64,000 nucleotides of DNA from a bacterium (GCA_037200965.1 JBBCGK010000001.1:433992-497991); one strand, 5' to 3'. Shown: positions 38,559 through 59,094, numbered from the stretch's first letter. Numbers and translations are program-made. Notes: generated by a model from the letters alone, not told the origin.

Positions 38559-38594
38559 GTTGCACAACCTCCTTTTTACGAACGATCCTGCAGG
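38559..38594 (+). repeat. CRISPR-like repeat copy 1 (distal)
   Basis: Exact 36-mer, 34 bp upstream of the tatD start on the opposite strand. Confidence 0.9.
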
Positions 38595-38603
38595 TTAAAA
38601 GCC

Positions 38604-38912
38604 GTGACTGATTTTCATCGAAAGCACGGCTACGACGTGGGGACCGGGAACATGGCGGTCATGTCGCTCAGAATTGGACTACTCATAGAAGAACTGGGTG
38701 AACTCCACGCCGTGGTTTCAAAGGGTGTTGGCGACATTTCAGAGGAACACGCAGACCTCTTGTATCTACTTCTTGGAAACTGCGTCACGCTTGGTATTGA
38801 TATAGAAACTGCTTTCTTTGCAAAACATGCCATTAACATGCGGAGGGAAGCCAAGGTAGTGAGGGGGAACCGCCGTGTATCGGATTGGTCCCATGAAAAA
38901 TCTCAGGAATGA
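38604..38912 (+). CDS. MazG-like all-alpha nucleoside-triphosphate pyrophosphohydrolase
   Basis: ...RIGLLIEELGELHAVVSKG...EEHADLLYLLLGNCVTLGIDIE... EExxE/ExxD metal-binding helices. GTG/ATG start ambiguous; the reading frame is open straight through repeat 1. Confidence 0.65.
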   Translation: MTDFHRKHGYDVGTGNMAVMSLRIGLLIEELGELHAVVSKGVGDISEEHADLLYLLLGNCVTLGIDIETAFFAKHAINMRREAKVVRGNRRVSDWSHEKSQE

Positions 38913-39940
38913 AAGCTACAGTCATCATCGGTGCGCAGTATGGCAGCGAAGGAAAAGGTAAGATTGCAGCTTATCTTTCAGATGAGTTCGCTCGTGCAGT
39001 TCGAACTGGCGGGCCAAACTCGGGGCATACCGTCGAGCGCAATGGCACGTTCTATCAAGTTCGAGCGGTCCCTAGTGCCTTCGTGAACCAACAATGTCGC
39101 CTCGCGATTGGTGCCGGGGCCATAATAAACACTGCCGTACTATTAGGAGAATTAACGGCATGTGGTATTGTCGAGGGGCGTTTGATAGTTGACCCTCAGG
39201 CTGTCATAATTGATGAAGAATATCAAAATTCGGAACTAGATTTAATCAGTTCGATTTCGTCCACCGGACAAGGCGTTGGTGCAGCAATCGCAGCTAAGGT
39301 CTTACGTCGGAAAGTAACTCTCGCAAGAGACGTGCCCGAGTTGCGGCCACTGCTTGCCGATGTTGCTGGCACGATCAATTCCGAACTCCAACAAGGCCTA
39401 GCTGTAATGATTGAGGGGTCGCAAGGATTTTTCTTGAGTTTGCATCATGGTTACTATCCGTTTGTAACAGGCAGGGAAACGACCGCAAGTTCATTTTGCG
39501 CCGAAGTAGGAATCGGTCCCAAAGATGTGGGTCAAGTGATTGGAGTTCTCCGCACCCACCCGATTAGAGTTGGCGGCCCTTCGGGACCTCTTCAAGACGA
39601 AATCGATTGGCAGACCGTCACCGCCGAGTCGGGCTACCCAACACCGCTGTTAGAGATAACTACCGTTACCAAACGAATTCGACGCGTCGGGAGGTTCTCA
39701 ATGGCCGAAGCTAAACGATCTTTGATGATCAATTCGGCGACCCAAATTGCTTTAAACTTCGTCGACTACTTGGACCATGCAAACTTTGGACTTAGAAGCT
39801 ACACCGCACTGACTGCTTCAACAAAAAAATTCATCGACGCACTAGAGACACAAACGGGAGTTCCCGTTTCGCTGGTGGGCACGGGGCCCCGTAACAGCGA
39901 TATGATAGACTTACGACGCGAAAAGAACCTCCCCCATTAG
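38909..39940 (+). CDS. Adenylosuccinate synthetase family protein, short form (343 aa; PurA/PurZ-like)
   Basis: GAQYGSEGKGKI P-loop (Ser where PurA has Asp13), GGPNSGHTV, STGQGVGAA, MIEGSQGFFLSLHHGYYPFVTG, ITTVTKRIRRVGRF, GTGPRN. It is ~90 aa shorter than housekeeping PurA and overlaps the MazG-like gene by 4 nt. Confidence 0.75.
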   Translation: MKATVIIGAQYGSEGKGKIAAYLSDEFARAVRTGGPNSGHTVERNGTFYQVRAVPSAFVNQQCRLAIGAGAIINTAVLLGELTACGIVEGRLIVDPQAVIIDEEYQNSELDLISSISSTGQGVGAAIAAKVLRRKVTLARDVPELRPLLADVAGTINSELQQGLAVMIEGSQGFFLSLHHGYYPFVTGRETTASSFCAEVGIGPKDVGQVIGVLRTHPIRVGGPSGPLQDEIDWQTVTAESGYPTPLLEITTVTKRIRRVGRFSMAEAKRSLMINSATQIALNFVDYLDHANFGLRSYTALTASTKKFIDALETQTGVPVSLVGTGPRNSDMIDLRREKNLPH

Positions 39941-39948
39941 ATACCAGC

Positions 39949-40701
39949 ATGAAAAACCAATACTTTGGCGACTTGAGCGACTATAAGAAGTACGGTTTGC
40001 TGCGCACACTTTCGATTGAGGGTGAGTGCTCGCTCACTGTGTGTTGGATGCTGACGCGAGATGATCAAAGTACCGACGGGCGGCATACAACTTATTTGGC
40101 GGACGTAAGAGAATGGCGCAACCATGAGCCGTTGGTATTTGATCTACTCGCGGACGCAGTCTTCAAAAATTCCCGTAATCTCGAAATAGTTGAAAAGTCC
40201 GGACTAATACCGAACTCAAACTACTTTCGTGAGGAAATCGGCGATGCTCCCTCCCAACGGGAAGCTTTTTTTGCCCGATTGGCAGATGAAGCCCGCAATT
40301 CTGATATTGTGTTCTTGGACCCCGACAACGGCCTTGAAGTGAAGTCAGTCCCCTATGGCTCCAAGGGAGCACATAAGTACATTTATCGGTCTGAAATCGA
40401 AAAGTTATCTCGGAATGGACTTTCAATCTTGCTGTATCAACATTTTGGTCGGAAAGAACGGTCTGAGTTTATCCGAGCTATTGCATTGAAACTCATCGAT
40501 TGGCTGAATGTGGAGGAAGTATTTTCACTTCGGACGACGCATACCGTATTTTTTCTTGTGCCGAAAGCTGCCCACAGGTCGCGAATAGATCGATCCCTCC
40601 AGGCAGTAAATAGACAATGGGGAGATAAGATCTTTATCGAGATACACTCTAAGGAGTCTGTATCAACGGTTACAACGAAAAATCAGTTAGACCTACTCTA
40701 A
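39949..40701 (+). CDS. Hypothetical protein (250 aa) co-transcribed with the PurA-like gene
   Basis: ...YFGDLSDYKKYGLLR...VFLDPDNGLEVKS...KYIYRSEIE...; family not recognised. Confidence 0.5.
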   Translation: MKNQYFGDLSDYKKYGLLRTLSIEGECSLTVCWMLTRDDQSTDGRHTTYLADVREWRNHEPLVFDLLADAVFKNSRNLEIVEKSGLIPNSNYFREEIGDAPSQREAFFARLADEARNSDIVFLDPDNGLEVKSVPYGSKGAHKYIYRSEIEKLSRNGLSILLYQHFGRKERSEFIRAIALKLIDWLNVEEVFSLRTTHTVFFLVPKAAHRSRIDRSLQAVNRQWGDKIFIEIHSKESVSTVTTKNQLDLL

Positions 40702-57538: not shown

Positions 57539-57677
57539 AACAATTTAATGCCTTCCTTCTGGCAGCAGACCACTAGGAGCGGCAGACGGCCGTTCATTAT
57601 CAGCGTGGATCATTGGCTGGACCGAGCCCCAATCGGTGACTGATTCGTACGGCTAAAGACCGCTCGGGTCAACTAAG

Positions 57678-57713
57678 GTTGCACAACCTCCTTTTTACGA
57701 ACGATCCTGCAGG
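57678..57713 (+). repeat. CRISPR-like repeat copy 6 (leader-proximal)
   Basis: Exact 36-mer, 32 bp from the cas2 stop. Confidence 0.9.
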
Positions 57714-57745
57714 AGTCCGTGTATATTGAGCGGTAACGCGAATTA

Positions 57746-58042
57746 CTAGACAATCTCAAAGGACTTGATCTTATAATACTCCCCGATAACGGCATCGGCA
57801 GTTGAATTAAGTGCGCATGATTTGCAGGAAGAAAATAGATGCAGCCGATCCCGTTTTCCCGTGAATAGCGATCGCATCTTCATTTCAAATTCCCGGCGCT
57901 CCTTAAAGGAAAGGCGTCCGACGTAGAGAGTCTGTTGAAGTGCGGATAAACCATAGTCCTTTGATAACTTTTCCGCGCGGATCTGGCGCTGCCGATTGGC
58001 GGTTCTCCAGGCGACTATTGCAAGGAAGCATGGATCATTCAT
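57746..58042 (-). CDS. cas2: CRISPR-associated endoribonuclease Cas2
   Basis: 98 aa; ...FLAIVAW...QQTLYVGRLSF...DRLHLFS pattern similar to I-E-type Cas2; ATGA overlap with cas1. Confidence 0.7.
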   Translation of the reverse strand: MNDPCFLAIVAWRTANRQRQIRAEKLSKDYGLSALQQTLYVGRLSFKERREFEMKMRSLFTGKRDRLHLFSSCKSCALNSTADAVIGEYYKIKSFEIV

Positions 58043-59094
58043 GGTGCCGCATATTCAAACGGCACATATAAGGGCGCTTTTTCAAGAAATACCCGGCTTA
58101 AGAGCTCGCTCTGTTCCGTAATGGTATTGCGGAGCGTACGGCGTTTCCCGTGATGGAGGACTTTCGACTCGAGGCGCTTAAGCACCGCCTCAACCACCTT
58201 GCTCTTTCCTTGCGCAGAAAGCCGATATTCGATCTTGCTTACCTGCTCGAAATCGCCGCGCTTGCCAAGTTCCTGAGAAATGAAGAGCGGCATGACTGCA
58301 GCGTCGACGACGGGGACCCGAAACTCTTCGACCAGATCGAGGACGAGCGCGGGCTTGCCGTAACGCTCGGAATGATAAAGTCCGAGATACGGGTCGAGAC
58401 CGATATAAAGGCACGCCCGCTCGACTTCGTTATAGAGGATGCCGTATCCGTAATTAAGAGCGCTGTTGAACTTGTCCCTGCCTTGCGGTATCCGGCCCGG
58501 GAACTTAAAAAGCGATTTCATGCCTTGCCAATAGCGCTCTGCAATGGATCCTTCAAGGCCAAGCAGTTCCTCGTTCACCCGGTTGCTCGGAAGCAGCTTC
58601 GCTATCGACTCAAAAACCGCCTCCGCCTGCATCCGCTCCTTCGCATTCTCCGCACCGTATCGGTCGGCAAGATGGCGCATAAAGCGGATTTGGTTGCGGC
58701 ACTTACCGACAACGAAGGTACGCGCAAGTTCGAAGGATTTAGCCGGATCGGAGGAAGTCGTAAGCTGTGCGCGGCGCAATGTCGCGAGCCCCTTCGGGTC
58801 GCTTGAGAAAATGCGCCCGACGGGTTTCCCAAATGCGCCGAGATAGACGATATCGACTTCGTGCTCGAGCGCGAGTTGCACCGCATGCATGGAAATGGAG
58901 GACGGACGGAGTATGACGATCTTAGCAAGCCGCCGGACCGGATACTCCTTCTTAACCCGGAGAAGCTTTACCGCAGTTCCCCGCTTGCGACGCCTGCCAC
59001 CCCCAAGCGGCTTTCGCGGAACCGGGAGACTGACCGTAATACGCTCGCCCGTCGCGCCGATGAAGCTGCCATAGGTATCTATCAGCAAATCCAT
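58039..59094 (-). CDS. cas1: CRISPR-associated integrase Cas1
   Basis: ...NSALNYGYGILYNEVERACLYIGLDPYLGLYHSERYGKPALVLDLVEEFRVPVVD... canonical Cas1 signature, 351 aa. Confidence 0.9.
   Translation of the reverse strand: MDLLIDTYGSFIGATGERITVSLPVPRKPLGGGRRRKRGTAVKLLRVKKEYPVRRLAKIVILRPSSISMHAVQLALEHEVDIVYLGAFGKPVGRIFSSDPKGLATLRRAQLTTSSDPAKSFELARTFVVGKCRNQIRFMRHLADRYGAENAKERMQAEAVFESIAKLLPSNRVNEELLGLEGSIAERYWQGMKSLFKFPGRIPQGRDKFNSALNYGYGILYNEVERACLYIGLDPYLGLYHSERYGKPALVLDLVEEFRVPVVDAAVMPLFISQELGKRGDFEQVSKIEYRLSAQGKSKVVEAVLKRLESKVLHHGKRRTLRNTITEQSELLSRVFLEKAPLYVPFEYAAP

Follow-up and report, generated by a model that had tools for sequence, protein, structure and literature searches.

In CRISPR adaptation, Cas1-Cas2 integrates spacers by staggered cuts at the borders of a repeat followed by fill-in, and the resulting arrays consist of repeats of about 23-55 nt next to cas genes, separated by near-uniform spacers of about 21-72 bp. 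Ectopic or neo-CRISPR arrays, solitary repeats and mini-arrays are also short arrays or single repeats made by Cas1-Cas2, sometimes far from effectors, and their spacers are of normal length. Casposons, which use a Cas1-fold integrase to insert kilobase (kb) DNA with target duplication, are self-mobile elements with a family B polymerase, terminal inverted repeats, short target duplications and no Cas2. Integrons and super-integrons hold ordered heterologous gene-bearing units and a recurring short sequence, the variable and imperfectly palindromic attC, beside an integrase gene. The subject of the present analysis is a locus in a 64,000-nucleotide stretch of bacterial DNA (GCA_037200965.1 JBBCGK010000001.1:433992-497991, hereafter the window) in which six perfect copies of a 36-nt repeat, adjoining the genes cas2 and cas1, are separated by inserts of 1375-10,933 bp.

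In its proteins and repeats this locus is a CRISPR adaptation module; in spacer length and effector it is not. The likeness comprises a Cas1 with the canonical active site, a Cas2 fold encoded beside cas1, a short putative leader end (only 2-35 bp lie between cas2 and the first repeat, with a conserved junction motif), and a 36-37-nt direct repeat that ends in GTGCAAC, has terminal inverted symmetry and is duplicated perfectly around each insert of foreign, largely mobile-element DNA. The differences are the insert lengths, which across the clade of related Cas1 proteins range from 37 to 10,933 bp, a Cas2 too divergent for Pfam and NCBIfam, and the lack of Cas3/Cascade, Cas9, Cas10, Cas12 and Cas13 in the 64-kb window and within 10 kb of annotated relatives. 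Unlike in ectopic arrays, long inserts are the rule across the whole Cas1 clade. The locus is neither an integron, a casposon nor a set of tandem islands. Casposons provide a precedent for a Cas1 fold handling long substrates, but this locus carries arbitrary foreign DNA as its cargo, duplicates a dedicated 36-37-nt target, includes Cas2 and has no polymerase gene beside it. Compared with integrons, no IntI tyrosine recombinase is found at either end of the array, which is flanked by tatD and by cas2-cas1; the direct repeats are identical; genes are cut and in mixed orientation rather than complete, mostly promoterless open reading frames (ORFs) in one orientation; and the identified donor lacks the site. 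Unlike a tandem island with its attachment (att) site, insert 1 is an internal 2.2-kb piece of a larger element, its donor lacks the repeat, and the units of 1.4-1.5 kb carry no integrase. By analogy only, the PIWI-interacting RNA (piRNA) clusters of eukaryotes are also dedicated loci that gather kb-sized mobile-element fragments in mixed orientation; there is no evolutionary relation, and likeness in small RNAs is not part of the analogy.

The structure is real and stably inherited, its inserts are foreign and its junctions are exact. We consider it likely that this Cas1-Cas2 lineage integrates DNA without a length ruler, the loss of which is suggested by insert lengths running from 37 bp to 10.9 kb. 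Complete identical flanking repeats, border-exact junctions and a donor that lacks the site together form the signature of an integrase that makes staggered cuts followed by fill-in; since this is the known chemistry of Cas1-Cas2 and no other candidate enzyme is linked to the repeats, a ruler-free Cas1-Cas2 is the probable agent. An earlier note on this DNA had read the repeats as CRISPR-type sequences tied to cas1-cas2 that delimit kb-sized foreign DNA, and this core reading is borne out, with the repeat following cas2 clade-wide.

The repeat array, its cas genes and the assembly

The repeat GTTGCACAACCTCCTTTTTACGAACGATCCTGCAGG occurs in six + strand copies with 0 mismatches, over a span of 38559-57713. 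Annotated in the direction of the cas genes, on the - strand, the first and cas2-proximal copy is copy 6 (57678..57713), followed by the exact matches copy 5 (54739..54774), copy 4 (53328..53363), copy 3 (51744..51779) and copy 2 (40775..40810), and by the cas2-distal copy 1 (38559..38594), which lies 16 bp from the start codon of tatD. Beyond this far end tatD is followed by rpsF, ssb and rpsR, and metG and glyS are located beyond cas1. The five inter-repeat units are mutually unrelated in content and differ in guanine-cytosine (GC) content, from 0.485 to 0.596, with the housekeeping backbone at about 0.57-0.61. These measurements agree with the earlier account of a perfect 36-nt repeat present six times in one orientation over about 19 kb, with units of 1.4-10.9 kb and differing GC; its distance of 32 bp between the first copy and the cas2 stop is also right, with the correction that the copy concerned is that at 57678, the last on the + strand.

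No seventh copy of the 36-mer is present in the window at up to 12 mismatches (0 expected from shuffled sequence), no inverted copy was found on the opposite strand, and no degenerate repeats that would mark merged units were found at up to 12 mismatches in the long window inserts. Direct repeats or spacer remnants flanking the window inserts were looked for at each insert and none was found. Rfam over 36000-60000 matched neither CRISPR-DR nor any other RNA family, and the exact 36-mer gave 0 matches in genome, metagenome and viral collections, which do not include the source record. Read in the cas direction (window 57678-57713, - strand; relative L022, 14906-14942), the repeat is best conserved in the block AAAAGGA(GG), which looks like a Shine-Dalgarno site placed 8-9 nt ahead of the insert. 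The repeat type found in FCPU426 genomes contains an in-frame ATG (MPVAKRMVCN), and several long ORFs begin within repeats. Repeats of this kind might promote the translation of captured DNA.

The source is a tiny uncultured Patescibacteria genome of 960 kb from dead wood. The window contig, JBBCBH010010897.1 (960,259 bp; GCA_037975565.1), comes from a hifiasm-meta assembly of PacBio HiFi reads averaging 18.3 kb, and the window wraps this contig treated as circular, with window position 46708 as its last base and 46709 as its first. The join at 46708/46709 falls within the 10.9-kb insert 2 and is supported by the HiFi assembly alone. An independent short-read metagenome-assembled genome (MAG) contains a 22.1-kb contig, JAATEX010000139.1 (GCA_015655515.1), that equals window 47300-64000 with seven mismatches and no indel. 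Four repeats lie within this match, along with inserts 3, 4 and 5 and a 4.4-kb part of insert 2. The genuine differences are two single-nucleotide polymorphisms (SNPs) in inserts and two in cas1, the other three mismatches lying at the contig end. Among k-mer contigs, L004 (Illumina run SRR10968228) joins 28 nt of repeat to the entire insert 1, L007 and L011 (SRR28211700) show inserts 3 and 4 bordered at both ends by about 28 nt of repeat, and the Logan contig L001 from the HiFi run extends from cas1-cas2 into copy 6, including 27 nt of repeat. A further contig, L005, holds insert 1 exactly and without flanks, as expected because the reads hold insert 1 in two contexts. The repeat-insert junctions, which the earlier note had singled out for checking, are thus reproduced by the short-read MAG and the k-mer contigs, and mis-assembly is effectively excluded.

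The cas1 gene (58039..59094, - strand) encodes a 351-aa, seemingly catalytically intact protein that matches Pfam Cas_Cas1 with an E-value of 1e-63 and the generic NCBIfam Cas1 model TIGR00287 with 221 bits. Subtype models all score below cutoff, the nearest being I-D, I-G and I-C and, in PADLOC, Cas1b. An alignment of 28 clade members with 52-100% identity shows no variation at residues E181, H241, D253 and E256, a set that is consistent with an active integrase. The cas2 gene (57746..58042, - strand) encodes a divergent 98-aa protein, overlaps the end of cas1 by 4 nt and has its stop 32 bp from the repeat. It found no match in Pfam or NCBIfam. PADLOC identifies it as Cas2b with an E-value of 9e-7, a profile made from nine of its orthologues matched five PDB entries, all of them Cas2 structures, and an AlphaFold 2 model built with four database homologues (predicted local distance difference test score, pLDDT, 75) has a beta-alpha-beta-beta-alpha-beta fold. 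The top Foldseek matches of this model in the PDB are nearly all Cas2 structures (7f84, E-value 2e-4; template modelling, TM, scores 0.6-0.68). Because PADLOC, the PDB profile, the modelled fold and Foldseek agree, the protein qualifies as Cas2, and the comparison with Cas1 and Cas2 models proposed in the earlier note supports both gene assignments. As that note had also said, no effector cas gene is found among the large ORFs of the 64-kb window.

The 32-bp interval between cas2 and the repeat (57714..57745, - strand) is the putative leader end and carries a junction motif conserved across the clade. On the other side of the pair, the 55-bp gap between metG and cas1 (59095..59149, - strand), read directly from the sequence, is a possible cas promoter plus operator. 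It contains the palindrome CCTTGAC-ACTAG-GTCAAGG, which overlaps TTGACA-17 nt-TATATA and may make this a regulated cas promoter. A promoter and terminator consensus scan around cas1-cas2 made no call, including at this candidate in the metG-cas1 gap.

Insert contents and donor DNA

Insert 1 (38595..40774; 2180 bp, GC 0.485) contains a truncated MazG-like gene, a PurZ-like gene, a gene for an unknown protein of 250 aa and the opening codons of a P450 gene. It is identical at 2180 of 2180 positions to 9687-11866 of sequence L002, an internal piece of an integrative element on contig JBBCBH010010880.1, a 4.0-Mb contig from the same co-assembly as the window contig. The identity runs from the first base after one repeat to the last base before the next, and both break points in the donor are intragenic, one in a 297-aa AAA/MazG-like gene and one in the P450 gene. 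The donor element encodes a tyrosine integrase, a serine recombinase, a relaxase and TrwB-like ATPases, and no repeat-like sequence is present in its 21 kb at up to 14 mismatches. The names of homologues suggest, weakly, that the chromosomal flank of the donor is most like that of Rhizomicrobium-like Alphaproteobacteria. For the donors of inserts 2-5, exact-protein look-ups returned only the source contig, the sister MAG and k-mer contigs.

Insert 2 (40811..51743; 10,933 bp, GC 0.596) starts in a serine-recombinase gene and ends in an SpvB/FG-GAP toxin-like gene. Its first ORF (182 aa) is the C-terminal third of a recombinase, with 178 residues 60% identical to residues 337-514 of a 516-aa protein, and its last ORF (706 aa) has a frame that runs across repeat 3. 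Between them, Pfam identifies a HerA/TrwB-like ATPase, an ATP-grasp protein, S1/P1 and NS nucleases, and XRE, LysR and GNAT genes. Insert 3 (51780..53327; 1548 bp, GC 0.541) encodes a 446-aa protein with a phage-tail-like C-terminus, of which residues 321-445 match 207 phage records by tblastn, next to a cut upstream ORF. Insert 4 (53364..54738; 1375 bp, GC 0.516) encodes proteins of 173 and 218 aa without a family match. Insert 5 (54775..57677; 2903 bp, GC 0.506) encodes unknown proteins of 154 and 523 aa and a patatin gene that is cut at its C-terminus by the repeat, the Pfam Patatin match covering profile positions 2-118 of 191 only and the ORF continuing through the repeat. Gene orientation within the inserts is mixed. 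As the cut genes at the borders show, each insert is a random fragment of foreign, largely mobile DNA and not a gene cassette. The gene content described earlier is largely matched, except that the supposed phosphoribosyltransferase (PRTase) gene at 54069-54725 has no family match, and the integron-like cassette capture offered then as an alternative finds no support, since the units are border-cut random fragments in mixed orientation.

Several features of the insert genes are of interest in their own right. The recombinase that is 60% identical to the first ORF of insert 2 (window 40879 onward) is that of the insert 1 donor (L002, 399-1949). At window 38604-39940, and at 9111-11032 of L002, a MazG-like gene lies beside a short PurA homologue of 343 aa, which is 33-36% identical over its full length to the '2-aminoadenine' synthetases of the PurZ type from phages, including Vibrio, Gordonia, Arthrobacter and Acinetobacter phages; genes of the Z-base pathway are here carried by an integrative element, not a phage. 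Within insert 2 (window 44358-46359), divergent genes for an S1/P1-type nuclease and a non-specific NS-type nuclease encode hydrophobic, signal-peptide-like N-terminal segments, and the enzymes would be secreted and potentially useful to a nucleotide-scavenging epibiont. The 5' region of the phage-tail-like gene of insert 3 contains a 74-nt direct repeat (window 53046-53247; 74% identical, 128 bp apart), which extends just upstream of the gene and may be a protein-internal repeat.

Related loci across the Cas1 clade

The Cas1 proteins of this clade form at least 458 clusters. A search with Cas1 only, taking one genome per species, yielded 23 loci from Kaiser-, Adler-, Taylor-, Nomura- and Saccharibacteria, Paceibacterota, FCPU426 and "proteobacterium" MAGs. 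In at least 17 of these 23, a homologous 37-nt repeat begins 2-35 bp after cas2, which argues that the adjacency of repeat and cas genes is not coincidental. In the cas direction the clade repeat reads CCTGCA..TCGCAAAAAGGA...TGTGCAAC, and the sequence before the first repeat ends clade-wide in a conserved GGCT, AGCT or GACT. Most loci with several copies have kb-scale repeat spacing: inserts measure 1332, 1379, 1340 and 2377 bp in L013, 1290 and 670 bp in L015, 1262 and 1482 bp in L016, 673, 2279 and 1228 bp in L021, and 1038, 1429, 2058, 1472 and 2873 bp in L027 (Taylorbacteria). Two further Cas1 homologues, L115 (inserts of 7008, 591 and 756 bp) and L116 (213, 2526, 144, 579, 4007, 386 and 140 bp), are surrounded by housekeeping genes on contigs of 0.9 and 1.1 Mb and have no further cas gene beside them. 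With 1-8 repeats the arrays are short, and every junction in every examined locus falls exactly at the repeat border. The annotated related loci have no cas effector within 10 kb, and neither Cas4 nor other cas genes were found nearby in any examined locus. The trait is therefore conserved across the Cas1 clade and not peculiar to the window genome; the earlier note had named such a search of relatives, and homologous, mostly kb-spaced repeats were found after cas2.

The 49 non-redundant inserts have a median length of 1331 bp, the shortest measuring 37 and the longest 10,933 bp. Inserts of canonical length (37-39 bp) account for four of them, all in L035, from a Buchananbacteria MAG, which is also the only locus with 74-76-bp repeat spacing in 885 kb scanned. 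In this locus (16661-17892) the short spacers are interleaved with units of 351 and 471 bp, and a cas1 remnant of 53 residues is found 6.5 kb from the array, which may be left over from the ancestral state. A degenerate repeat pattern retrieved 79 further metagenome stretches, none of which shows spacing of about 70 bp, and gave no match in viral contigs. Insert lengths are unevenly spread, with 15 of 49 within 1228-1548 bp and several at about double this length (2873, 2903 and 2939 bp); the middle of the 2.9-kb window insert contains no degenerate repeat. The bases at insert ends are biased symmetrically, with T as the first base in 21 of 51 and A as the last in 26 of 51, a hint that could fit a preference for a 3'-terminal A on both attacking strands.

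By tblastx the 51 inserts are mutually unrelated with one exception: two adjacent inserts of L027, from palsa (13944-17510), carry genes homologous to those for the HerA-like ATPase and the ATP-grasp protein in insert 2, which lie within window 40879-43864. Together with the 60%-identical serine recombinase, these homologues suggest that one family of integrative elements has been sampled repeatedly.

Many metagenome loci (among them L045, L057, L074, L075, L081, L084, L097, L108 and L114) retain the last 30-40 codons of cas2, a short interval and the repeat, without cas1, and L065 has the imperfect palindrome given below 20 nt upstream of the repeat and no cas genes; these may be degraded or non-autonomous arrays. 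The conserved junction motif and the retained 3' end of cas2 point to a leader that overlaps the end of cas2. In the FCPU426 and 'proteobacterium' MAGs, a sharply bounded 1.5-kb unit consists of TTGTCCACGACGGGGACCCTTCGTGAACAACG, an imperfect palindrome, followed by cas1, cas2 and one repeat. Copies are found in L021, L024 and L029 (about 9899-11402 in each) and also in L022 and L028. Three copies within one MAG are 99.7-99.8% identical between unrelated flanks, which suggests that the module itself moves.

Probable origin of the inserts and proposed role of Cas1-Cas2

In the model that we favour, cas1, cas2, a short leader and the array of repeats make up a derived form of the CRISPR adaptation module, and its integrase would insert double-stranded DNA of nearly any size (37 bp to about 11 kb, typically 1.2-1.5 kb) in place of spacers measured by a ruler to about 35 bp. 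Cas1-Cas2 would seize a piece of foreign DNA that enters the cell or lies nearby, chiefly DNA of integrative elements and phages; the two 3'-OH ends of the fragment would attack both borders of a repeat, probably of the cas2-proximal copy beside the conserved leader end; and gap filling would duplicate the 36-37-nt repeat. A final step of this kind would leave each insert between two identical, complete repeats, without donor homology or spacer remnant and with break points scattered at random within donor genes.

A chimeric assembly, in which a normal CRISPR array was joined to unrelated contigs via repeat or spacer/protospacer identity, could be suspected from the facts that repeats are classic assembly break points, that k-mer contigs end inside the repeat and that insert 1 is present in a second context within the same sample. 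Such an artefact has next to no probability in view of the overlap assembly of reads of about 18 kb, the separate short-read MAG with the same order of four repeats and inserts, about four genuine SNPs and no indels, the whole inserts joined to repeat sequence in L004, L007 and L011, and the recurrence of the architecture in dozens of unrelated assemblies from different technologies. It is very improbable, too, that the 36-mer is the att site of an unrelated site-specific recombinase, of an integron-like system or of tandem islands, with the neighbouring cas genes a coincidence. That reading draws on the resemblance of gene-bearing units between conserved short repeats to chromosomal integrons and on the serine- and tyrosine-recombinase genes of the donor element. 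Against it, at least 17 loci with Cas1 proteins of only 52-85% identity have the first repeat 2-35 bp behind cas2, and the repeat sequence co-varies with Cas1; the units are truncated and of mixed orientation rather than complete cassettes; no integrase gene flanks the array, with tatD on one side and cas2 on the other; and the recombinase in insert 2 is reduced to its C-terminal third. As the sole identified donor, that of insert 1, has no copy of the 36-mer, the repeat is not an att site shared by donor and target. The earlier note had named an att site as one outcome that would overturn its proposal, and both the donor and the clade-wide cas2 adjacency speak against it.

The insertion of phages into CRISPR arrays by spacer-protospacer recombination and of insertion sequences (ISs) into arrays is known, and a normal short-spacer array might have been enlarged by such Cas-independent events (end-joining, transposition or recombination between spacers and mobile elements). 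These precedents are joined by L035, with its mixture of 37-39-bp spacers and units of 351 and 471 bp. We regard enlargement as unlikely: insert 1 is base-exact between complete repeats without spacer remnant, spacer duplication or repeat-replacing microhomology, junctions fall at repeat borders in every locus, the inserts are fragments rather than whole elements, and canonical spacers are absent from all loci but L035. Spacer-mediated integration of whole elements in particular was rejected, as flanking direct repeats and spacer remnants are lacking. Equally doubtful is the view that the cas1-cas2-repeat unit is a selfish, casposon-like element and the arrays of foreign DNA are by-products, either of its transposition or of aberrant events, with no host function. 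The three near-identical 1.5-kb units with unrelated flanks in one MAG, the cas-less palindrome-plus-repeat remnant L065 and the frequency of truncated cas2-leader-repeat remnants are in its favour, whereas the window and the relatives closest to it have a single copy of the module amid housekeeping genes, the 1.5-kb unit showed neither terminal inverted repeats nor target duplications around it, and mobility of the module alone leaves heterologous inserts that still need integration at the repeat. The selfish reading thus has some support, and it would add mobility to the model rather than replace integration at the repeat.

Several points weigh against integration by a ruler-free Cas1-Cas2. 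Known Cas1-Cas2 complexes measure their prespacers, and to our knowledge full-site integration of kb DNA has been described for casposases only. The catalytic role of Cas1-Cas2 is deduced from sequence, as we infer also the polarity of insertion and the transcription and function of the array. A donor is known for insert 1 alone, one of the five window inserts, and this insert occupies the cas2-distal end, an odd place if insertion is leader-proximal, since it would then be the oldest. The metagenome loci, fetched with a pattern derived from the repeat, are a biased sample, and most have a single repeat and no cas1 in the DNA stretch examined. Groups of near-identical metagenome loci show no gain or loss of inserts between strains, the one apparent difference in insert length being copy-number variation of a repetitive gene. 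The multicopy 1.5-kb unit hints at mobility beyond the proposed model, and the effector search in the window covers 64 kb and not the rest of the 960-kb genome.

As no effector genes lie beside the module, a canonical crRNA-guided nuclease is unlikely to be what reads the archive. The most likely function is a record of mobile elements, used via long transcripts or by an unlinked effector acting in trans; alternatives, in descending order, are a route for gene acquisition and a tolerated neutral by-product. With somewhat less assurance than for ruler-free integration itself, we lean towards a widespread effector-less Cas1-Cas2 lineage, mainly in Patescibacteria, or candidate phyla radiation (CPR), and a few uncultured phyla, that archives gene-sized pieces of foreign mobile elements and of neighbouring genomes without length control. 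This lineage may well represent, with the same modest preference on our part, a new CRISPR-derived class with kb-scale memory and either a non-canonical readout or a role as a gateway for gene acquisition. The earlier note had known of no system with gene-sized spacers, and neither kb inserts between CRISPR repeats nor effector-less Cas1-Cas2 arrays like these are described in the searchable full-text literature, a body that leaves most subscription journals outside its coverage; one paper on Patescibacteria that mentions adaptation modules proved irrelevant.

On the current understanding, CRISPR adaptation captures about 30-40 bp under the control of a ruler, and natural site-specific insertion of kb DNA would, if true, change that view. 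If Cas1-Cas2 makes these arrays, CRISPR adaptation would be tied more closely to its casposon ancestry, and workers in DNA recording and genome engineering would take an interest in an integrase able to place long DNA of any sequence at a defined 36-nt site. The system requires two small proteins and a 36-nt target, and hence is testable; demonstration of a non-immune function or of a new mode of readout would bring it close to a new category. An adaptation module that persists and is conserved across phyla without an effector would imply a function beyond crRNA-guided interference. For the unculturable bacteria themselves, the inserts record physical contact with DNA, as in the Patescibacterium studied here, one of whose inserts is 100% identical to part of an integrative element in a 4-Mb bacterium of the same community, and the contents of such arrays would show which organisms and elements these epibionts have met.

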